Assembly (NCBI GenBank): GCA_016840165.1
Contig: JAEOSU010000101.1
Span: 1 to 17,028, forward strand
Length of the DNA stretch: 17,028 nucleotides
Direction of reading: 5' to 3'
DNA from: Promethearchaeota archaeon
GTDB taxonomy: Archaea > Asgardarchaeota > Lokiarchaeia > Sigyniarchaeales > SOKP01
A program made the position numbers and the translations under genes. The notes below the pieces were generated by a model. It was not told the DNA's origin, did not search any database, and saw nothing but the letters and a program-made list of their open reading frames with translations. This document shows, piece by piece, positions 1,654-10,714 of the stretch; the stretch's first letter is position 1, and each line of letters begins with the position of its first letter.

Positions 1654-2619
1654 TTATCTTATTTTTCTTAATGTTTCAAATGTTCCATATCCACCCTTAA
1701 ATCCATTTAGTTCAAATTCACCAAAGGATTGAATGAGTACCGATTTATTACCTCGGAAATCTTTAAATGGAACAGGAACAATCGAATCAACCTTTCCTTT
1801 AAGTAGATGTTTATTCTCCTCAATATCAACAATCTCCAATTCTGAACTAATGGGTAAAATACCGTTAGGTTCAAAAATCTGATTTATAATTTTAATGGTT
1901 TTCAATGGAATATTTTTTCCTTGCTTATAGAGAAATCCTCCAGTTGATAATCGACCATCATCTGTAATTATTGCAGCAGGATTTATAGCTAAATCTTTAT
2001 TAAACCATACAACATAATAAAACCAATCTCCTACACCTGTCCAATCTCGTACTCCATAGGTATGATCACGTTGACTCATAACATTATCGATTTTATATAA
2101 GCTCTCTCCAATCTTAAGATCACCCGAACATGTCCCTATCTGCTCCCAGTGTTTATCGCCAGATTTTTTACCAATCTCTAGTGATTCAGGGGTCATAAAT
2201 TTACTATACTCATAAGTATTGTTTAATGGAGTGTATAAAAAATCCATCTCAACTTTTTCTATATTACGAATCAACTTTGGATTTTCCCTGATATTTGGTA
2301 AATCTAACGAGTTTTGGACGAAAAACATATTACCTTTAAATTTATAGAACCAATTTCCATTAGACTGCCAATCATGAATCATTCCTTTGACATTTAATTT
2401 ATCGTTAAACTCTTTCATTTGAATTTCTTGGTGATATCCACCTACAGAACCATCTGGCAAGAAAAGGAAGAAAAAAGTCATGGCTTCTTGCTTATTGGGT
2501 TTAAAACCAATTCTCGACATACCACCAATTTTATCAGTTTTATCATAAAACACAAAATAATAACTTTCATTCCATTCAGGATGCTCTGTCAGTTTTTCTT
2601 TATGAATTATCTTTTCCAT
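1654..2619 (-). CDS. Uncharacterised beta-rich protein, likely AttH/CrtC/tocopherol-cyclase-like double beta-barrel (DUF7064/DUF7065-like)
   Basis: WNESYYF (2574-2554), HWEQIG and RDHTYGVRDW (2070-2041) motifs. Start placed at ATG 2619 behind a GAGG SD (2629-2626) rather than TTG 2631. The family call is by recalled motif resemblance. Confidence 0.7.
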   Translation of the reverse strand: MEKIIHKEKLTEHPEWNESYYFVFYDKTDKIGGMSRIGFKPNKQEAMTFFFLFLPDGSVGGYHQEIQMKEFNDKLNVKGMIHDWQSNGNWFYKFKGNMFFVQNSLDLPNIRENPKLIRNIEKVEMDFLYTPLNNTYEYSKFMTPESLEIGKKSGDKHWEQIGTCSGDLKIGESLYKIDNVMSQRDHTYGVRDWTGVGDWFYYVVWFNKDLAINPAAIITDDGRLSTGGFLYKQGKNIPLKTIKIINQIFEPNGILPISSELEIVDIEENKHLLKGKVDSIVPVPFKDFRGNKSVLIQSFGEFELNGFKGGYGTFETLRKIR

Positions 2620-2632
2620 ATGAATCCTCAAT

Positions 2633-5359
2633 TTATTCTTTTATAATCTCACAAATTCCATTAAAACCATTAATAGTAAGAATTTGACCGGTTTTTAATA
2701 CTCTACAAGCATTAGGTATATTAGTCACTGCCGGAATTCCATATTCACGAGACACTACTGCTCCATGCGACAAAATTCCCCCCGTTTCAGTAATTAATCC
2801 TCCAACTTTCGAAAATACAGGTGTCCATCCAGGATCAGTTCGAGGAACCACCAAAATTTCCCCTGATTGAACAGAAGGAATCATACTTATATCATTTAAT
2901 ACCCTGACAGGAGCGGTTATTATTCCATGACTAGCGGGAATTCCTCGAAACTGCTCACTATTCTCATCAAATTCTATGACATCATTAAATTCTTTTGAAC
3001 CTAAAAGAAATTTTGGAGGAAGAATGTTTTCATATTTTAAAAACTCGTTCCTTCTTTCCTTTACTAACTCTAATAACTTATTGAGTTCACTAGTATTATA
3101 TTCATTGAATAAGACTCTTTTAATCTCACGTTTATAGAAGAAAAATATCTCATTTTCCTCTTCAAGCACTTCTCGCTTTACTAAGATGCCACCAATTTTT
3201 AAAAATAATTCTCTATTTCTGGTTATCCATTTATCTAAATTAAATCGTTGGTTTTCGCGAAAAATAATATATTTTCTACTATTTCTTAATATTGCAGAGA
3301 AAAGTTTCCAGATGAGGGGGCCAAAAATTTTTGATCTTATTTTTCTCTCCACAATTCTTTCTATCTTCTCACGTTCAAATTTATTATTTTTTTCCACTTC
3401 ATTTTTGTCTTCATAATCTTCAACGCATAAGGATCTCAAAATATCTATAATGAGATATGGTGCCTCCTTCCATCTTGGATAATATATTTCTCTTGAAAAA
3501 CCACGATCTCCAAAATCAATTAGAAATTCAGTTAATTTTTTATTAAATTGAATTGAGTCAGGATTTTCATCCAATTGTATCCGCTTAAGAATGTTTTCTG
3601 AATCAAATTGATTAAATATTGGTTTTAAATAATAAGACTTTCGAATAAATGATGCTAATTGATGAATTTTTTCATTAGTTTCTGTTAATTTATGATCTAA
3701 TCCTGAGATTAGAACTGGATAAAAATTTTGTGCCTCTTTTTCACTTAATAATTTATTGAGAAGATATTGAGTCATTAAATTCATACCTATATTATGAACG
3801 GGTATTCCATATCTAATAAGACGAAAATGAGAAATCATTACCTTATCCATTTCCTCCGCCAAGCTAAATAATGACACTAAATCATCTGAAATTTCGCTAT
3901 CTTTGACTTTCAAATCAAATTCTTTCAAATACGGTCCAAAAACGTCATATGTCCATTGTTCATACTTTTCTGCTGTTTTTGACATTGCACCATCAGGATC
4001 ATGAAATTTAACGCGCAATTCTGATATCAATCTTTTAAAGAGTCGAAATGGAAGCTTCTTTATGGTCTTTTTTCCATAAGGACCTTGTCCCTCTGGAAAA
4101 TAATTTAGAACATCCTCATTTCTTATAAATGTAGGAATTTCATACTCAACCTTTCTTTTTAAAACATCTAAATTAAAATATACATGCCCTTTGTATAATT
4201 TTATTAACCTCTGGTCTACTCGTTTATAACCCATGATGCTATTGAGCTCTATGTTTACGACTTTAGTTATCTGAGATCCTAATAAGTCAAAAAACAATGG
4301 AGTCGTATTATCGTTCCAATAATCATCAGAATATCCTCTTGAATAAATTGGGGCATCGCTAATGTCAGTAGATGATTTCGAGATTATTGGACGAGTTTGT
4401 AAAATGTAAATCTTATTATTATTATCAATTGCCCATTCAATATCTTGCGGATTTCCTTCAAAAATATTTTCTATTTGAAGTCCAATTCTACTTAGCTCAA
4501 GAATTTGCGAATCACTAAGCGATGGTTTCTCATTCAAGTGATCTGGTAAGTCGAAAATTTCTACACCAGAGCGTAGATTAGAGGAGTGAGGTTGAATAGA
4601 GATCTTTTTATTACCTATTCTTTTATCTATTATCCTAAATGATGATTTGGTTTTGCTCTCCCTTTTAACAATAAATTGATCGGGAGAGATTGTTCCAGAA
4701 GCAATTGATTCACCTAATCCAAAATTTGATTCAATAATGAGTTGAGATTCATTAGGATTTATTGGGTTACTAGTAAAAAGAATACCAGCACATTTTGCTG
4801 GAATTAATTTTTGTATAATTACAGCAATTTTAATATTTAAATGAGAAATATGATTCCTAATTCTGTATGAGATTGCTCTCATAGTCCATAACGATGAATA
4901 GCAACGTTTAATATGATATAATACATTATCATTACCTTTAATATTTAAATAACTGTCATATTGTCCCGCAAATGAGGCTGTTGGTAAATCTTCTGCAGAT
5001 GCTGATGATCTTATGGCTAAGGGAAAACTATCTATTAACGCTGATTGTGATTTAATCTCCGATCTAACTTTATCAGGTAATTGAGCTTCCAAGATGGCAT
5101 TTCTGATTTTAGTTGAGCATGTCCTGATTGATTCAATATTCTCGCTTTCCATTTCTTTTAACGTTTTTTGGATTAACTCTTCAAGATGATTCTCTTTTAT
5201 GAATAAGTCGTAAGCATCGGTGCTAATTACAATGCCCCTTGGCACATTTATGTTATTTTGTACTAAGATTCCAAGATTTTTTGCTTTCATTCCGATTAAA
5301 TTCAAATCACCATCATAAATCTCATCTAAATGAATTAATAGTGGTTCTTCTAAGGTCAT
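2633..5359 (-). CDS. PEP-utiliser family small-molecule phosphotransferase, RPH/YvkC/PigC domain order (ATP-grasp, substrate domain, C-terminal swivelling phospho-His domain)
   Basis: N-terminal GMKAKNL, AIRSSASAED..ASFAGQYDSYLN and PQDIEWAI..IYILQTRPI. C-terminal TDPGWTPVF and GGILSHGAVVSREYGIPAV (His865, codon 2767-2765). No C-terminal PEP/pyruvate TIM barrel. Confidence 0.9.
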   Translation of the reverse strand: MTLEEPLLIHLDEIYDGDLNLIGMKAKNLGILVQNNINVPRGIVISTDAYDLFIKENHLEELIQKTLKEMESENIESIRTCSTKIRNAILEAQLPDKVRSEIKSQSALIDSFPLAIRSSASAEDLPTASFAGQYDSYLNIKGNDNVLYHIKRCYSSLWTMRAISYRIRNHISHLNIKIAVIIQKLIPAKCAGILFTSNPINPNESQLIIESNFGLGESIASGTISPDQFIVKRESKTKSSFRIIDKRIGNKKISIQPHSSNLRSGVEIFDLPDHLNEKPSLSDSQILELSRIGLQIENIFEGNPQDIEWAIDNNNKIYILQTRPIISKSSTDISDAPIYSRGYSDDYWNDNTTPLFFDLLGSQITKVVNIELNSIMGYKRVDQRLIKLYKGHVYFNLDVLKRKVEYEIPTFIRNEDVLNYFPEGQGPYGKKTIKKLPFRLFKRLISELRVKFHDPDGAMSKTAEKYEQWTYDVFGPYLKEFDLKVKDSEISDDLVSLFSLAEEMDKVMISHFRLIRYGIPVHNIGMNLMTQYLLNKLLSEKEAQNFYPVLISGLDHKLTETNEKIHQLASFIRKSYYLKPIFNQFDSENILKRIQLDENPDSIQFNKKLTEFLIDFGDRGFSREIYYPRWKEAPYLIIDILRSLCVEDYEDKNEVEKNNKFEREKIERIVERKIRSKIFGPLIWKLFSAILRNSRKYIIFRENQRFNLDKWITRNRELFLKIGGILVKREVLEEENEIFFFYKREIKRVLFNEYNTSELNKLLELVKERRNEFLKYENILPPKFLLGSKEFNDVIEFDENSEQFRGIPASHGIITAPVRVLNDISMIPSVQSGEILVVPRTDPGWTPVFSKVGGLITETGGILSHGAVVSREYGIPAVTNIPNACRVLKTGQILTINGFNGICEIIKE

Positions 5360-5519: not shown

Positions 5520-5804
5520 ATGACGAAAAAAGTTGGTTTATCAGGACAATTCGGACCTCGCTATGGAGCCAACGTTAGGAAACGATGGGCTTTAATTATG
5601 AATAAACAAAAAAGCGGTAAATTAAAATGTCCGCGCTGTGAAACTAAGGGATCTATTACAAGAGAATCTACGGGGATTTGGTTCTGTAAAAAATGTAAAG
5701 CCCGCTTTACTGGTGGCGCTTATGATATCTCAACACCGAGAGGACTCGAATCATTTCGAATAGCAAAACGAAAACAGAGAGAGTTGGAAGCTATAGAAGA
5801 ATGA
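5520..5804 (+). CDS. rpl37ae: 50S ribosomal protein L37Ae (eL43)
   Basis: TKKVG..G.FGPRYG, CPRC...CKKC zinc ribbon, TGIWFC, FTGGAY. Confidence 0.97.
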   Translation: MTKKVGLSGQFGPRYGANVRKRWALIMNKQKSGKLKCPRCETKGSITRESTGIWFCKKCKARFTGGAYDISTPRGLESFRIAKRKQRELEAIEE

Positions 5805-6156: not shown

Positions 6157-6492
6157 TTGGACGAAGAGACAAAGAAAAAACTTCAAAACTTAACGGCACT
6201 TAGTCAAAGTTTGGAATTTTATACGCAACAAAAATTACAAATTGATAGTCAAATTCGTGAAACAGAATTAGCAATTGAAGAGTTAGAAAAAACTTCCAGT
6301 GACACCACCGTATATAAAAATATCGGTGGAATTATGGTAAAAAGTAATAGAGATAAGTTATTAGATGAGAAGAAATCTCTAAAAATTACATTAGAAATGC
6401 GTTCAAAGACTATTGCTCAAAAAACTGAACGTACTAAAAATAGCTTTGAAACATTACAACAATCACTCCAAAATGAATTATCAAATAAATAA
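6157..6492 (+). CDS. pfdB: Prefoldin subunit beta (true start possibly ATA at 6136)
   Basis: Coiled coils flanking ETELAIEELEK..TVYKNIGGIMVK; synteny with pcc1; SD AGGTGAG at 6123-6129. Confidence 0.93.
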   Translation: MDEETKKKLQNLTALSQSLEFYTQQKLQIDSQIRETELAIEELEKTSSDTTVYKNIGGIMVKSNRDKLLDEKKSLKITLEMRSKTIAQKTERTKNSFETLQQSLQNELSNK

Positions 6493-6504
6493 TGCGTTTA
6501 TTTC

Positions 6505-7512
6505 ATGAATTTTCAGAAATTCGATATTTTGTTATCAGAATTATCGAACAAAAAAGTATTAATAACTACACACGATCAAGTAGATCTTGATGGATTTACT
6601 TCTTGTGTTTTATTAAAGTTTTTTCTTGAGACTTATTTTGAGAATATTCAAGTTCATCTATTTTTTTCTCGATTATCAAAATTCACCATTGATTTTTTAA
6701 CTAGATTGGAAAAAATTTATCCAAACATAAGTTATTCTATCGAGAACGGTAAGAATTACTTAAATATTGAATTTATAATAATTCTTGATACTAATAATTT
6801 AGATCAAGTGGTTTTTCCTGAAAGCGTTAAGGAAAGTAAAAAAAAAATTCCTTTTATATTTATAGATCATCATTTTAATTTAAATCATGATATCGTTAAT
6901 AATATCAAAGCATATAATATAATTCTTGATTCAAATACTTCCACTGCTGAAATTCTATACGAGATCTTTATGCATTACAAAATTGAAATTCCAATTAAAT
7001 TTAGATACTTACTTTTAGCTGCAATCTATACTGATACGGGAGGATTTAAAAATGCAAATAATAATACTTTCCATCATATATCAGATATATTGAATAGCAA
7101 TCTAAAATTTCAAGATTTTTTAATGTGTGTTGAAAAAGAGAACGATTTTCCAAAAAAAGTAGCGATAATAAAAGGTTTACAAAGAGTAAAAATAAAAAGA
7201 ATAAATACTTGGTTAATAGGGATTTCTCAGGTTGGTAGTTATACCTCCTCTGTTGCTTCTACTTTGCTTCAGATCGGATTTGATGTGAGTATAGTTTATT
7301 CGAAAAAACCAAATAGTTTTAGAATAACTACGAGAGCAAAAAAGGAAATTTGTTTAAAAACTGGATTGCATCTAGGGAAAATTTTAAGCGAAATAAAAGA
7401 GGGAAGCGGAGGTGGTCATGATGGAGCTGCTTCCTTGAATGGAGAGAATTCTTTTGAATCTACTTTGAATCAAATTTTAGAAAAAATAAAAAAAACTTTA
7501 AACAACATATAA
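6505..7512 (+). CDS. DHH/DHHA1 family phosphoesterase (NrnA-like oligoribonuclease/pAp phosphatase)
   Basis: THDQVDLDG, ILDT, IDHH, STAE, TDTGGF and C-terminal GGGHDGAA motifs. Confidence 0.9.
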   Translation: MNFQKFDILLSELSNKKVLITTHDQVDLDGFTSCVLLKFFLETYFENIQVHLFFSRLSKFTIDFLTRLEKIYPNISYSIENGKNYLNIEFIIILDTNNLDQVVFPESVKESKKKIPFIFIDHHFNLNHDIVNNIKAYNIILDSNTSTAEILYEIFMHYKIEIPIKFRYLLLAAIYTDTGGFKNANNNTFHHISDILNSNLKFQDFLMCVEKENDFPKKVAIIKGLQRVKIKRINTWLIGISQVGSYTSSVASTLLQIGFDVSIVYSKKPNSFRITTRAKKEICLKTGLHLGKILSEIKEGSGGGHDGAASLNGENSFESTLNQILEKIKKTLNNI

Positions 7513-7549
7513 ATTTACTATCAAAAGGAACTCTAATAATTTTGAAATA

Positions 7550-8389
7550 ATGTCTCTCATTAGATTTAATAATTTTAGTTTTCGTTATAAAGGTAATGAA
7601 GAATATGCCCTTAATAGAATTAATTTAGAAATTAAAGAAAATTCATTCATCTTACTTGCGGGAGAGACTGGTTCTGGCAAAACATCTTTAATTAGGTGTT
7701 TGAATGGATTAATTCCTCAGTTCTATGCTGGTTATTATAAGGGTTCAGTTGAAATTGATGGTAAAAATACAATTACTACACCAATATCTGATCTCTCAAC
7801 AGTAGTCGGAATCGTTTTTCAAAATCCTGAGAATCAATTAGTTGCTATGAATGTTGAACATGAGATTGCTTTTGGAATGGAAAATTTAGGGATTCATCCA
7901 AATGAAATAGGAAAAAGAATTAAAGAAGTTGTTAAAATCACTGAGATTGAAGATTTATTAGAAAGAGCCCCGTTTGAAATCAGTGGAGGAGAGAAACAAA
8001 GAGTAGCTATGGCTTCAGTATTAGTGTTAGATCCCAAGATATTAATTTTAGATGAACCAACTGCTAACCTAGATCCGTTTTTTGCCAACAAGATTATTAA
8101 AATGTTAAAAAAAATACAAGAGAAAAAAAATATATCAATCATTATTAGCGAACATCGGATGGATCTTTTAGTTCCCCTGGTTGATGATATAATTTTGATG
8201 GAAAATGGAAAACTAATCGCTTATGATGATAAAGATATCATCATGAATAGCGAATTATTCCAAAAATTAAATATTAACAAACCTAAAATTTATTCACTTT
8301 TTAGTGGATTAGAAAAAAACCACCTACAATTTGATAAAATACCAATATCCTTAGAGGATGCTTTAAACCTTTTTAAACAATACAATTAA
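7550..8389 (+). CDS. ecfA1: ECF transporter ATPase EcfA
   Basis: Walker A GETGSGKT, FQNPENQL Q-helix, ISGGEKQR signature, LILDEPT Walker B, SEH switch. Confidence 0.9.
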   Translation: MSLIRFNNFSFRYKGNEEYALNRINLEIKENSFILLAGETGSGKTSLIRCLNGLIPQFYAGYYKGSVEIDGKNTITTPISDLSTVVGIVFQNPENQLVAMNVEHEIAFGMENLGIHPNEIGKRIKEVVKITEIEDLLERAPFEISGGEKQRVAMASVLVLDPKILILDEPTANLDPFFANKIIKMLKKIQEKKNISIIISEHRMDLLVPLVDDIILMENGKLIAYDDKDIIMNSELFQKLNINKPKIYSLFSGLEKNHLQFDKIPISLEDALNLFKQYN

Positions 8390-8407
8390 GAAGAGTTGTT
8401 TTAAAAA

Positions 8408-9262
8408 TTGAAAAGAGACAATCCAATAATTCATATCGATAACGTTGACCATGTATATCCAAACAATACATCTGCTTTAAAAAATATTTCTTTAAGAATC
8501 AACCAAGGAGAATTAGTTGCTATTATGGGTCAAAATGGAGCAGGAAAGACTACTTTAATAAGAACTCTAAATGGTTTAATCCGTCCCACCAAGGGATCCA
8601 TATATATAAAGGGTGAAAAGAATTCAGATAAATCGATAGCGGATCTATCTAAAATCATAGGTATTATATTTCAAAATCCTATGCATCAGTTATTCTCAAA
8701 CACTATTGAGGAAGAACTTAAATTTTCCATGAAGAACTTAGGCTATAACAAAGAGCAAATTCAACATGAAGTTGATAACTTTTTAAATAAATTTAACCTC
8801 GCAAAATATCGCGATCGCTCACCTTTTAACTTATCCGGAGGAGAAGCTAAAAAATTAGCATTAGCAACAATTATTTGTCGTGAACCTGAAATAATTGTTT
8901 TTGATGAACCTACATTAGGTCAAGATGCTAAAGAAATTGATTTTTTCCTAAGTTTAATACAGAATGAATTAAATAAAGGCAAAACTATCATAATGGTTAC
9001 ACATAATATTGAATTTGTCTTCGAAAACATTCCAAGAACCATTCTGATGGCAGAAGGACAAATAATTGCTGATGGTCCTACTGAAAAAGTATTAACAAAT
9101 GATTTTTTAGTAAGAAAAGCCTCGTTAATTCTTCCTCAAATCCATCAATTAAAACTAGGTTTAAAAGAAATTGGTATTGAGGTCCCTAATGAAATTTTTA
9201 AAGAACAAGATATGATTAGTTTCATAGATAATTATCTAAAAGCAAAATTAGCAAACCGGTGA
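8408..9262 (+). CDS. ecfA2: ECF transporter ATPase EcfA' (TTG start)
   Basis: GQNGAGKT, FQNPMHQLF, LSGGEAKK, VFDEPT and VTH motifs. Confidence 0.9.
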   Translation: MKRDNPIIHIDNVDHVYPNNTSALKNISLRINQGELVAIMGQNGAGKTTLIRTLNGLIRPTKGSIYIKGEKNSDKSIADLSKIIGIIFQNPMHQLFSNTIEEELKFSMKNLGYNKEQIQHEVDNFLNKFNLAKYRDRSPFNLSGGEAKKLALATIICREPEIIVFDEPTLGQDAKEIDFFLSLIQNELNKGKTIIMVTHNIEFVFENIPRTILMAEGQIIADGPTEKVLTNDFLVRKASLILPQIHQLKLGLKEIGIEVPNEIFKEQDMISFIDNYLKAKLANR

Positions 9263-9275
9263 GAGGAATAAGGAT

Positions 9276-10052
9276 ATGTCTTTTGAATTTCTAAATGCGT
9301 TTAAATTTTTAAAAAAAAATACAATCATTCATAGATTAGATCCACGAGTAAAGCTAATCTTTTCCTTAGTTTATACTATTAACGCATTAATGTTTACTGA
9401 AATCATACCCCTTCTCTTTATATTTCTTAGTTTACTGCCATTTATATTGTTAGGAAAATTATTCCGCCAATGGATAAAAAGCATACAAAGCCTAGCTTTT
9501 CTTTACATTTTTATCCTTATTATCAATACGCTATTTATTACTACTAATGGTTTTTCTTTTTCAATTGCTATGATTATAAGAATTACTATTATGATCTCTG
9601 CATTTTCGATATTTTTTTTAACCGTAGACCCGAATGATTTAGCATTATCCTTGATCTCTATGAAAATTCCATATGAGTTTGCTTTCTCATTTTCACTAGC
9701 TTTTCGTTTTGTCCCTACAATAGCAATTGAAGCTCAAAATATCATCGATTCTCAACAAAGTCGAGGCTATGAAATGCAAAAAAAAGGAATTATTAGTCAG
9801 ATAAAGAATTTATTTCCGCTTTTAGTGCCACTTATAATAGGATCAATAAAGAGAGCATTCAATGTGGCAGAAGCGCTTGAATCAAGAGCTTTTGGTAGTA
9901 AAAAGAAGCGCACATTTTATTTTACTATTCATTATTCTGGATCTGATTGGGTTTTCACCTTTTTTTTATTATTTATATTAATTGGGTTAATTATTATCCG
10001 TTTGCAAATAATAATAATGCCCGAATGGTTTTATTGGGGTTTACCAGTATGA
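9276..10052 (+). CDS. ecfT: ECF transporter transmembrane component EcfT (CbiQ family)
   Basis: IHRLDPRVKL, several TM helices, LAFRFVP, and the two Arg coupling motifs QQSRG and LESRAF. Confidence 0.92.
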   Translation: MSFEFLNAFKFLKKNTIIHRLDPRVKLIFSLVYTINALMFTEIIPLLFIFLSLLPFILLGKLFRQWIKSIQSLAFLYIFILIINTLFITTNGFSFSIAMIIRITIMISAFSIFFLTVDPNDLALSLISMKIPYEFAFSFSLAFRFVPTIAIEAQNIIDSQQSRGYEMQKKGIISQIKNLFPLLVPLIIGSIKRAFNVAEALESRAFGSKKKRTFYFTIHYSGSDWVFTFFLLFILIGLIIIRLQIIIMPEWFYWGLPV

Positions 10053-10714
10053 TTATCCAAGAATTTTCTTTTGCTGAGGATCAATTACATTACTTCGTTG
10101 GATTAGGATCTCTGATTATCACCAAATTAGAATTAGACGATATTTTTAATTTAATAGAGATTATTCAGAAGCGATACGAAGGTCTTATGCTTCAATTTTT
10201 CAATAGAAAATTAATACTTAACTATAATCATATTTTCTATGCTTGTTATCATACATTAAAGACTTTCTGCTATAAAAAGAATATTTCAAATAAGATGGGA
10301 ATAGAATTTCTGCTATATTTATCAGCAGATCGTCAAATAAAGAGAACGCTTGAAAATTATGGAATAACAACACATAACATTAATCAAGGCGCCATCGATT
10401 TTTGTGCTATTTCTAATAACAATAATCTTGAGATAGTTCGAAGGGATTTATTAAAAGAAATTAATGCTGAAGAAATTGACTTAAATTTGGGTAAGACTTC
10501 CTACGATAAATATGAGAGGATTAAAGAATATTTTGGGATAAATGAAAATCAAATTAATACAGTACTTAAATCGTATAGAATATTGGTTGATGATATAAAA
10601 CCTACTAAAACTAATATTGGACATTTTTATCTAGCACTTGAAGATTTAATCTGTGAAAAAATGGTAATATTAAGTTTAGAGAAAAGTAGTTATGAATTAG
10701 AATCTGCAGAATAA
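10049..10714 (+). CDS. cgi121: KEOPS complex subunit Cgi121 (221 aa)
   Basis: QFF..HIFYA..KNISNKMGIEFLLYLSADRQIKRTLENYGI and C-terminal LICEKMVIL. Start moved from 9947 to ATG 10049, which forms an ATGA overlap with the ecfT stop. Confidence 0.88.
   Translation: MIIQEFSFAEDQLHYFVGLGSLIITKLELDDIFNLIEIIQKRYEGLMLQFFNRKLILNYNHIFYACYHTLKTFCYKKNISNKMGIEFLLYLSADRQIKRTLENYGITTHNINQGAIDFCAISNNNNLEIVRRDLLKEINAEEIDLNLGKTSYDKYERIKEYFGINENQINTVLKSYRILVDDIKPTKTNIGHFYLALEDLICEKMVILSLEKSSYELESAE

Follow-up and report, generated by a model that had tools for sequence, protein, structure and literature searches.

Two adjacent genes in the window (the whole 17,028-nucleotide stretch of DNA that was analysed, from an Asgard archaeon) encode a dikinase of the rifampin phosphotransferase (RPH) type and a small two-barrel protein resembling a phosphate-eliminating lyase. 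We suggest that they probably constitute one functional cassette that uses ATP to remove a hydroxyl group: an alcohol would be phosphorylated and the phosphate subsequently eliminated. As the two genes are inherited together and, in some archaea, fused, the pair most likely spends ATP on removing a stubborn hydroxyl, the substrate being probably an oily molecule.

Organization of the locus

Both genes are located on the minus strand, the dikinase gene being followed by the DUF7065+DUF7064 gene:

2633..5359, minus strand: RPH-type dikinase gene, 908 aa (P0001), based on the ORF, Pfam and an AF2 model
2625..2629, minus strand: Shine-Dalgarno-like GAGGA, 5 nt before the small-gene ATG and 3 nt after the dikinase stop, read directly from the sequence
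1654..2619, minus strand: DUF7065+DUF7064 two-barrel gene, 321 aa (P0002, from the ATG at 2619), based on Pfam, AF2 and Foldseek; putative phosphate-eliminating lyase

A check of the sequence placed the dikinase stop codon (TAA) at 2635-2633 and the small-gene ATG at 2619-2617, with 13 nt between them, and the Shine-Dalgarno-like element lies inside this spacer. This agrees with a preceding sequence-only reading, which had described a two-gene unit with a stop at 2633 and the next Shine-Dalgarno/ATG within 14 nt. The two genes are translationally coupled. The TTG at 2631, taken by the ORF lister as the start of the small gene, is probably not the true start, because the orthologues are 320-323 aa long and begin at the ATG.

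The dikinase and its domains

Three domains can be distinguished in P0001:

4370..5302, minus strand: ATP-grasp (PPDK_N) domain, residues 20-330 (Pfam PF01326 and invariant residues)
2960..4369, minus strand: central helical domain, residues about 331-800, presumed to bind the acceptor substrate (all-helical in the model; RPH alignment)
2657..2869, minus strand: phospho-His swivel domain, residues 831-901, with the putative catalytic His865, codon 2767-2765 (Pfam PF00391)

The protein matches the Pfam families PPDK_N (PF01326; 1.7e-89) and PEP-utilizers (PF00391; 3.7e-23). All 69 orthologues compared have the ATP-grasp residues K25, R117, S118, S119, E123, D124, Q305, D306 and E308 as well as H865, which is also kept in the fused form of the enzyme (see below). 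H865 is the sole histidine of the swivel motif GGILSHGAVVSRE, and the position of its codon was verified. This histidine is C-terminal, whereas in PpsA/PPDK it occupies a mid-protein position. The AF2 model of P0001 (pLDDT 84) gave a full-length match to RPH of Listeria monocytogenes (5hv1; E 1.8e-47), extending over 946 columns with TM 0.60/0.63 and 25% identity. Thus, the RPH architecture postulated earlier, when the enzyme was read as an RPH/PigC-type phosphotransferase, is borne out by both Pfam and structure.

Besides the His-swivel end, the best conserved stretch among the orthologues lies in the central domain (0.69 identity to the query residue, blocks 351-450), and this domain retrieves orthologues in 60 of the 301 Asgard genomes. 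PF27448 (Rph_4th) is among the precomputed annotations of orthologues and relatives. Judging from the model, the central domain corresponds to the part of RPH that binds rifampin.

The best NCBIfam names for P0001 were "phosphoenolpyruvate synthase" subfamilies and RPH, every score being far below its cut-off. Three assignments were rejected in this way: RPH proper (NF041857, 403 bits where 999 are required; NF000283, 255 against 1700), PEP synthase/pyruvate, water dikinase (PpsA, 399 bits against 598; TIGR01418, 389 against 740; PF02896 missing) and PigC/RedH prodiginine ligase (370 bits against 1300 and 325 against 1350). The Pfam search of P0001 revealed no match to PEP-utilizers_C (PF02896), the PEP-binding barrel, which does occur in the true PpsA (C92, 970 aa) and PPDK (C101, 906 aa) of the same genome. 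The enzyme is therefore not a plain PEP synthase; had it been one, this would have spoken against the sequence-only reading.

The two-barrel protein

In the Pfam search at E <= 0.1, P0002 matched only DUF7065 (47.2 bits, gathering threshold 27) and DUF7064 (36.9 bits, gathering threshold 24.7); its homologues have both domains. With CrtC it shares the fold class, by way of AttH and kievitone hydratase. The AF2 model (pLDDT 93) adopts the AttH/CrtC/kievitone-hydratase two-barrel fold, so the CrtC-like barrel foreseen from the letters, rather than an unrelated fold, is what the Foldseek search of the predicted structure found. The best matches were the three entries of the recently solved 25-phosphosteroid lyase (25-PSL; 9fzn/9g2i/9g4c; E 1.6e-14, TM 0.68), and comparison with this lyase by VIA aligned 277 residues (Z 25.4, rmsd 3.0 A, 19% identity). 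When a profile of 43 P0002 homologues was compared with the PDB, 25-PSL was the sole match, a weak one (E 0.009, 18 bits) confined to two short motifs. An identity of 15-19% indicates a remote likeness and counts against dehydration as the function, as does the occurrence of the same fold, at equal Z, in hydratases, Diels-Alderases and AttH.

Three motifs picked out in the sequence-only reading were found at the following positions:

2554..2574, minus strand: WNESYYF, W16-F22, aligned to FYDRYYF of 25-PSL
2140..2151, minus strand: HWEQ, H157-Q160, conserved in the family; the 25-PSL counterpart is RFAQ
2041..2070, minus strand: RDHTYGVRDW, R184-W193, with the D185 codon at 2067-2065, aligned to 25-PSL and conserved in the family

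Among 48 diverse family members, the near-invariant residues are E18, S19, Y21 and F22 of the first motif, H157, E159 and Q160 of the second, and R184, D185, G189, R191 and W193 of the third. The P0002 segment GQRDHTYGVR aligns with GSRDRSWGVR of 25-PSL, which reads GSRNRSWGVR in the product-complex entry 9g4c. Because the depositors changed this same Asp to Asn in the product complex, D185 is proposed to be the catalytic Asp. R184 and R191 are candidate phosphate ligands.

Co-inheritance and fusion of the two genes

Of 80 loci belonging to Asgard lineages, Bathyarchaeia and Methanomethylicia, 77 have the two genes on one strand. Their presence or absence is concordant in 298 of 301 Asgard genomes (both genes in 58, neither in 240), and the three discordant cases lie at contig ends. 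This pairing is far beyond chance. Moreover, full dikinase-lyase fusions, in the order of the operon, are present in Thermoplasmatota (at least 17 protein clusters). Had the genes rarely co-occurred or fused elsewhere, the idea of a functional pair would have been weakened; the neighbourhood survey instead revealed near-perfect co-occurrence together with these fusions. Most operons start with the dikinase gene, and the full fusions with the dikinase part.

Similar associations were observed at a greater distance. Distant family members also adjoin RPH-type genes (in Methanomassiliicoccales, on an unassigned contig and on a bacterial-looking contig), one relative occurs as a fusion with a kinase of the APH type, a non-homologous kinase class, and a second locus of the same genome (contig C53) carries a split dikinase beside a DUF7065 paralogue.

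The cassette is accessory, as it is missing from many close relatives and the matching site in these congeners is empty. Such patchy presence is in keeping with the breakdown or modification of a compound that is environmental in origin or optional, rather than with core metabolism. No conserved third gene pointing to a pathway was found around the loci, which counts against a role in dehydration.

Proposed reaction and alternative explanations

Whereas the folds and motifs, the coupled translation, the strict joint inheritance and the natural fusions are observations, we infer the chemistry, the order of the steps and the stoichiometry from characterised homologues. By homology to RPH and HpeHI, ATP would be bound in the ATP-grasp domain and its beta-phosphate transferred to His865, with the release of AMP and Pi; the swivel domain would then carry the phosphate to an alcohol held in the central helical domain, yielding a phosphoester. 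In the second step, modelled on 25-PSL, the two-barrel protein would bind this phosphoester, with R184 and R191 holding the phosphate, and D185 would act in expelling it, so that a C=C bond is formed. The two steps would add up to R-OH + ATP -> alkene + AMP + 2 Pi. A kinase followed by a phospho-lyase had already been suggested from the letters, and this gains support from the closest characterised relative of P0002 being a phosphate-eliminating lyase with an RDxxxG motif.

Our best guess for the substrate is a lipophilic, isoprenoid-like compound bearing a tertiary or allylic alcohol, because, to our knowledge, every characterised member of the fold class (CrtC, kievitone hydratase, 25-PSL) acts at the end group of an isoprenoid, on its tertiary carbon. 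The chemistry may nevertheless differ from that of 25-PSL, as the conserved HWEQ and NES residues are not conserved in the latter. It also speaks against dehydration that RPH-type enzymes are known to act on phenols and on lactam or aldehyde oxygen, whose phosphoesters are incapable of beta-elimination, and that the characterised partner of 25-PSL is another type of kinase, which forms ADP and is encoded apart from the lyase.

Three other roles for the barrel have to be considered. It seems unlikely that the pair forms the same phosphoester for a cyclase with phosphate as the leaving group, in which the carbocation would be captured by cyclisation, rearrangement or substitution. The fungal Diels-Alderases CghA, Fsa2 and Phm7 do have the same fold at equal Z (23-24), some clusters among the Atlas look-alikes have tocopherol cyclase as part of their annotation, and the family-specific HWEQ and NES, absent from 25-PSL, hint at extra chemistry. 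However, the sequence retrieves only 25-PSL, which has the same Asp/Arg motif, and prenyl-chain or polyketide biosynthesis genes are not conserved in the neighbourhoods.

The order of events might also be reversed, with the barrel hydrating an alkene and the dikinase trapping the resulting alcohol as a phosphorylated end product. CrtC is a hydratase of this fold class, kievitone hydratase, whose structure has been solved, shares the fold (Z 22.6), and an irreversible ATP -> AMP step would favour hydration equilibria. We nevertheless regard this order as quite improbable, given that the dikinase precedes the barrel in most operons and full fusions, that the Arg pair and the Asp are common to P0002 and the phosphate-binding lyase while the Pfam search of P0002 matched nothing but DUF7065/DUF7064, and that the independent fusion to an APH kinase mirrors the order of 25-hydroxysteroid kinase (25-HSK) and 25-PSL.

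The near-invariance of a polar cluster resembling a catalytic site (E18, H157, E159, R184, D185 and R191) at 19-50% family identity, together with the correspondence of its Asp to the position changed in the product complex of 25-PSL, makes it doubtful in the extreme that P0002 is a non-catalytic, lipocalin-like carrier that keeps a hydrophobic substrate soluble and hands it to the kinase or removes the product, although its two-barrel fold is lipocalin-like and an SCP2 lipid-carrier gene adjoins one distant pair. Finally, that the large enzyme functions alone (in RPH-like resistance or detoxification, or as a plain PEP synthase) beside an incidental neighbour, as its best NCBIfam names and its best PDB matches (RPH) might imply, hardly deserves consideration in view of the scores far under the cut-offs (RPH, 403 against 999; PpsA, 399 against 598), the missing PEP-binding domain, the true PpsA and PPDK elsewhere in the genome, and the near-perfect co-inheritance and fusion with the small gene, which contradict it.

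Implications of the proposed pathway

If phosphorylation followed by phosphate elimination is indeed the function of the cassette, the dikinase step would render the formation of a high-energy tertiary phosphoester irreversible, in contrast to the reversible 25-HSK. The substrate may then be an isoprenoid alcohol (of the archaeal lipid, sterol or hopanoid type), and the pair would provide archaea with an oxygen-independent route to functionalise or degrade isoprenoid chains. We can conceive, with less confidence than for the cassette itself and slightly short of calling it probable, that, among anaerobic archaea (Asgard, Bathyarchaeia, Methanomethylicia, Thermoplasmatota and Methanomassiliicoccales), pairs and fusions of RPH-type dikinases with DUF7065/64 proteins make up a widespread, unpublished class of ATP(->AMP)-driven dehydratases that act on unactivated alcohols.

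Comparison with known systems

The precedent for kinase-then-lyase dehydration is the 25-HSK/25-PSL system of Sterolibacterium denitrificans (PMC8449060, PMC11061730). As proposed here for the cassette, an unreactive alcohol is phosphorylated and the phosphate is then eliminated to give an alkene. 25-PSL is the nearest solved relative of P0002 (PDB 9fzn, 9g2i, 9g4c), with the common motifs YYF and RD..WG.R, whereas HWEQ and NES are conserved in the P0002 family but not in 25-PSL. The kinases are unrelated: 25-HSK, of about 40 kDa and ascribed to the "phosphotransferase family", forms ADP in a reversible reaction and is encoded away from the lyase (PMC8449060), while the partner found here, an RPH-type His-swivel dikinase of 908 aa, should yield AMP + Pi and is translationally coupled or fused to the lyase. 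The assignment of 25-HSK to the APH class is our own inference, since the paper likens it only to "phosphotransferase family" proteins. The hosts differ as well, the RPH-linked cassette being carried by archaea. As its partner kinase is an RPH-type dikinase and not of the 40-kDa ADP-forming type, the cassette was rejected as a member of the published system, which is defined by the latter kinase type and a steroid C25 substrate; by analogy, it would function like that system without belonging to it. What is new relative to the 25-HSK/25-PSL logic is the different kinase class. For the phosphorylate-then-convert system proposed in the sequence-only reading, the word "undescribed" was too strong, because the kinase-then-lyase logic has been published for 25-HSK/25-PSL, albeit with an unrelated kinase and unlinked genes.

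RPH of L. monocytogenes (5fbs, 5hv1) shares with P0001 the three domains, their order and the catalytic His on a C-terminal swivel, and its products are phospho-rifampin, AMP and Pi (PMC4844700). phmmer aligned P0001 with RPH in two stretches, the better one being the ATP-grasp domain (E 1e-100), while the central domain is matched by structure and not by sequence. Unlike the cassette, RPH is a solo resistance enzyme without a lyase partner.

HpeHI, a split RPH homologue, is also a dikinase (PMC12167813). It belongs with CreHI and phenylphosphate synthase (9goj) to the split phenol-type dikinases, whose ATP-grasp and His-swivel chemistry is like that expected of P0001; HpeI resembles P0001 in the N-terminal domain (E 2.8e-40), and the split form is seen on contig C53 of this genome, beside the DUF7065 paralogue. 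HpeHI/CreHI-type substrates are phenols, and their phosphates are carboxylated or otherwise used, not being beta-eliminable. We know of no pairing of HpeHI, CreHI or phenylphosphate synthase with DUF7065/64 proteins.

In the RPH-like prodiginine condensing enzymes PigC/RedH/HapC, an oxygen is phosphorylated so that it can leave in the next step, but, unlike in the two-gene cassette, activation and condensation take place inside one protein; genes for a pyrrole pathway are lacking here. P0002 has, over its whole length, the double barrel of AttH, CrtC, kievitone hydratase and the fungal Diels-Alderases (2ich, 7a0t, 6kaw, 7e5t; Z 22-26), with no match to this superfamily at the sequence level in the Pfam and PDB profile searches. 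Its members of known function act on lipophilic substrates and need no phosphorylated one.

In class III/IV lanthipeptide synthetases, kinase and phospho-Ser/Thr lyase domains carry out ATP-dependent hydroxyl phosphorylation and then beta-elimination of the phosphate (PMC10604976). These synthetases have unrelated folds and act on peptides, so the likeness is one of analogy only, but the logic of a fused kinase and lyase is the same.

Genomic setting of the gene pair

The window derives from an Asgard archaeon. The genes encoding the RPH-like protein P0001 and the two-barrel protein P0002 lie between Rrp42 and L37ae, on the strand opposite to them, in an archaeal exosome superoperon whose genes in the window are Rrp41, Rrp42, L37ae, Pcc1 and prefoldin beta. 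Also encoded in the window are an ECF transporter, Cgi121, a THUMP protein, Sua5, ZPR1, phosphofructokinase and a four-subunit 2-oxoacid:ferredoxin oxidoreductase. The ORFs of the ECF T-component (CbiQ; 9276-10052, plus strand) and the Cgi121-like protein (9947-10714, plus strand) overlap by about 100 nt as listed; the true start of the latter is probably located further downstream, because its Cgi121 Pfam match starts at residue 80.

Features of the gene pair and its flanks
42-803, Rrp41, exosome superoperon
806-1627, Rrp42, exosome superoperon
2629-2625 (GAGGA) and 2619 (ATG), minus strand, start region of the P0002 gene
2633-5359, minus strand, P0001 ORF (908 aa; stop codon TAA at 2635-2633)
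5520-5804, L37ae, exosome superoperon

The ORF lister placed the start of the P0002 gene at TTG 2631. As the orthologues (320-323 aa) start at the ATG codon, the product was taken to have 321 residues, numbered from ATG 2619. Its nearest homologues carry the names Promethearchaeota, Lokiarchaeota or Hodarchaeota. All the motifs quoted in the sequence-only reading were found in the sequence, and a codon check confirmed H865 as the histidine of the swivel domain.

P0001 belongs to the RPH-like dikinase family

A Pfam search of P0001 identified PPDK_N over residues 20-330 (1.7e-89) and, at the C-terminus, PEP-utilizers over residues 831-901 (3.7e-23), but no PEP-binding PF02896 domain. All its NCBIfam matches (PRK06241 'PEP synthase' subfamilies, RPH, PigC, RedH and PpsA) fell far under the curated cut-offs, and this, together with the domain content, ruled out that P0001 belongs to PEP synthases, RPH proper or PigC. 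The genome carries a canonical PpsA (970 aa, contig C92) and a PPDK (906 aa, contig C101), both with PF02896; therefore P0001 is not its PEP synthase.

The AF2 model of P0001 (built from 42 sequences, pLDDT 84.3), whose middle part is all-helical, aligned over its full length with Listeria RPH 5hv1 (E 1.8e-47, 946 columns, TM 0.60/0.63, 25% identity), and Rph_4th, a newer Pfam family, is present on P0001 orthologues. Neither H865 nor the ATP-grasp residues vary among 69 of these, and the central domain ranks among the best-conserved regions. RPH converts ATP and rifampin into phospho-rifampin, AMP and Pi via a swivelling histidine (PMC4844700), and its split homologue HpeHI is also a dikinase (PMC12167813). 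We conclude that P0001 is a member of the RPH-like dikinase family without being orthologous to RPH, PigC or PpsA. Many proteins of archaea are annotated as 'PEP synthase / phosphoenolpyruvate protein kinase', and these labels are probably wrong.

P0002 is a probable distant relative of 25-phosphosteroid lyase

P0002 carries the Pfam domains DUF7065 and DUF7064, its family comprises 983 representatives at E <= 0.001, and its AF2 model is all-beta (pLDDT 93, pTM 0.90). The best Foldseek matches were three entries of 25-phosphosteroid lyase (25-PSL; E 1.6e-14), released in January 2026; AttH, fungal Diels-Alderases and kievitone hydratase came next. VIA-align gave Z-scores of 22-26 for all of these, AttH (26.2) and 25-PSL (25.4, rmsd 3.0 A over 277 residues) being tied for first. 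It is the sequence, unlike the VIA-align Z-score, that sets 25-PSL apart: its identity to P0002 (19%) is the highest among the aligned structures, and it was the sole match (E 0.009) when a profile of 43 P0002 homologues was compared with the whole PDB.

In the family profile alignment, WNESYYF lies opposite FYDRYYF of 25-PSL, and GQRDHTYGVR opposite GSRDRSWGVR. Entry 9g4c, in which 25-PSL has phosphate and product bound, reads GSRNRSWGVR; it has Asn in place of Asp, so the depositors altered exactly the residue equivalent to D185 of P0002. We infer from this alteration that the Asp is catalytic. Across 48 family representatives (19-50% identity), E18, S19, Y21, F22, H157, E159, Q160, R184, D185, G189, R191 and W193 are nearly invariant. 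25-PSL keeps the RD..WG.R core, whereas HWEQ and NES of the P0002 family are missing from it. The chemistry of the two is probably related, although it need not be identical.

The two genes are coupled

Eighty loci were fetched using P0002 as the query protein. A full-length P0001 homologue (46-73% identity) is encoded on the same strand in 77 of them, and the other three are all interrupted by contig ends. The hosts of the paired loci are Loki-, Hod-, Hermod-, Thor- and Atabey-type Asgard archaea, Bathyarchaeia and Methanomethyliaceae. The P0001 homologue is mostly found directly upstream of the small gene, with 1-2 kb between them in six loci and a reversed order in two. Sampling of 301 Asgard genomes gave a P0002 homologue in 59 and the P0001 central domain in 60, with both proteins present in 58 and neither in 240; of the three discordant genomes, two have the match at a contig end, and in the third, a fragmented assembly, it lies near a contig start.

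Distant family members are paired as well. In one pair from Methanomassiliicoccales the small gene and an RPH-type gene overlap by 4 nt, a 369-aa member sits behind a 1010-aa RPH-type enzyme with SCP2 and Fe-ADH genes close by, and on a bacterial-looking contig (L098, which carries SmpB) a member adjoins an RPH-type gene in reversed order. Functional coupling of P0001 and P0002 is nearly certain.

Only the pair itself is conserved, and no conserved third gene naming a pathway was found across the paired loci: Loki-type loci lie within the exosome superoperon, and different genes flank the pair in Thor and Bathy loci. In five loci (L054, L058, L060, L081 and L090) an additional DUF7065-family paralogue of about 300 aa lies directly beside the orthologous pair on the opposite strand. 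In eight Thorarchaeia-type loci (L079, L080, L082, L085, L086, L088, L089 and L091) the pair is followed on the same strand by a His_Phos_1 gene (histidine-phosphatase superfamily, 216-222 aa), which could encode a linked phosphatase.

Fusion proteins

No longer, fused form of P0002 came up in a word-index search. This reflects the limited sensitivity of that search rather than absence, because an exhaustive profile search did reveal fused proteins of the family. The full fusions (1119-1228 aa; 17 or more clusters at a 90% identity threshold, in independent assemblies) follow the operon order, i.e. PPDK_N, Rph_4th, PEP-utilizers, DUF7065 and DUF7064, and their names, where given, are Thermoplasmata or Thermoplasmatota. 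Identity to P0001 is 40% over 885 residues and to P0002 28%, with both signature motifs intact. For biochemical work, such a natural fusion offers a convenient target in a single polypeptide.

In two further proteins an ATP-grasp domain alone, with no His domain, is joined to the DUF7065/64 barrels, and in another one the partner is an APH-type kinase. As the barrel family is fused to two unrelated kinase classes, these proteins provide strong independent support for its acting on kinase products. The APH-type or ATP-grasp-only types include P0240 (725 aa), P0167 (801 aa) and P0177 (766 aa); Fer4/CCG genes adjoin P0177, and also the bacterial-looking pair in L098. Neither a eukaryotic protein nor an animal one of about 1300 aa was found among the 150 best representatives, the fusion-centred search matches listed and the Atlas look-alikes.

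Three metagenomic proteins of about 1470 aa (P0304, P0307 and P0329) are RPH-like dikinases (PPDK_N, Rph_4th, PEP-utilizers) fused to PF01989, a putative aconitase-X swivel domain of a dehydratase family, possibly another kinase-dehydratase combination.

Distribution and locus history

Among 90 high-quality Asgard genomes, no more than 25 carry the cassette; 27 further genomes from the window's own genus were sampled, and just 10 of them have it. In four complete congeners without it (L101-L104), L37ae comes right after Rrp42 at a distance of about 180-215 nt, i.e. the site is empty. This makes the accessory 3.7-kb cassette a presence/absence polymorphism at a single site of the exosome superoperon. 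The pair occupies the same superoperon position in roughly half of the 80 loci, which stem from several Asgard lineages; judged from locus position rather than a tree, this fits old residence and repeated loss.

A second kinase-barrel locus of the same genome (contig C53; L009:6373-11655) has a split dikinase divergent from three genes.

Features of the C53 locus (L009 coordinates)
6373-7344, minus strand, PPDK_N protein, 323 aa, half of the split dikinase
7370-7726, minus strand, His-swivel protein, 118 aa, half of the split dikinase
7894-9051, plus strand, 385-aa gene without an assigned family
9057-9977, plus strand, DUF7065 paralogue, 306 aa, 26% identical to P0002
9991-11655, plus strand, AMP-binding acyl-CoA synthetase

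No relationship was detectable between the 385-aa protein and the P0001 central domain. The make-up of this locus suggests a hydroxy-acid or lipid substrate.

Proposed function

We consider it moderately probable that the pair performs a kinase-then-lyase dehydration. P0001 would charge His865 from ATP, freeing AMP and Pi, and phosphorylate an alcohol bound in its helical domain. The phosphoester would then be bound by P0002, with R184 and R191 as proposed phosphate ligands, and phosphate would be eliminated with the aid of D185.

Characterised members of the P0002 fold class work on isoprenoid end groups. The fold class and the hydrolase, SCP2 and acyl-CoA synthetase neighbours hint faintly at a lipid-like alcohol as the substrate. 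In L055 (4870-5703), and also in L058 and L066, the kinase and barrel genes are separated by one for a 277-aa alpha/beta-hydrolase (Hydrolase_4; weakly matching LCAT and lipase), a hint that the alcohol may be freed from an ester.

No functional studies of DUF7065, DUF7064 or Rv3169 were found in the literature searched, nor any paper on RPH-like/DUF7065 pairs, the 25-PSL paper lying outside that search. The present case contributes the archaeal RPH-type form of the DUF7065/64-kinase module and its fusions. Part of a large DUF family, as well as the probably mis-annotated archaeal 'PEP synthases', gains a concrete function to test from this cassette, and such enzymes could serve as biocatalysts converting tertiary alcohols to alkenes.

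Comparison with the steroid kinase-lyase system

The 25-hydroxysteroid kinase (25-HSK) of Sterolibacterium denitrificans, a 'phosphotransferase family' enzyme of about 40 kDa, phosphorylates a tertiary C25 steroid alcohol; its ADP formation is reversible because the group-transfer potential of the tertiary phosphoester is very high. A separate lyase then removes phosphate to yield the delta-24 alkene; its gene, not adjacent to that of 25-HSK, was not known in 2021 (PMC8449060; PMC11061730). The structure of this lyase, 25-PSL, is now in the PDB. To our knowledge, the ATP-dependent removal of water from unreactive alcohols through a kinase and a phosphate lyase has been demonstrated to date only in this one bacterial steroid pathway.

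Our observations suggest that the strategy is much more widespread, its hosts including sediment archaea, Asgard among them; little is known of how these archaea metabolise lipids and recalcitrant organics. The logic of P0001/P0002 is like that of 25-HSK/25-PSL, but the first enzyme is different. Although this is speculation, the dikinase step might render formation of the high-energy phosphoester irreversible. The strategy appears to have been assembled on two or more occasions from kinases of unrelated classes, i.e. an RPH-type dikinase and an APH-type kinase.
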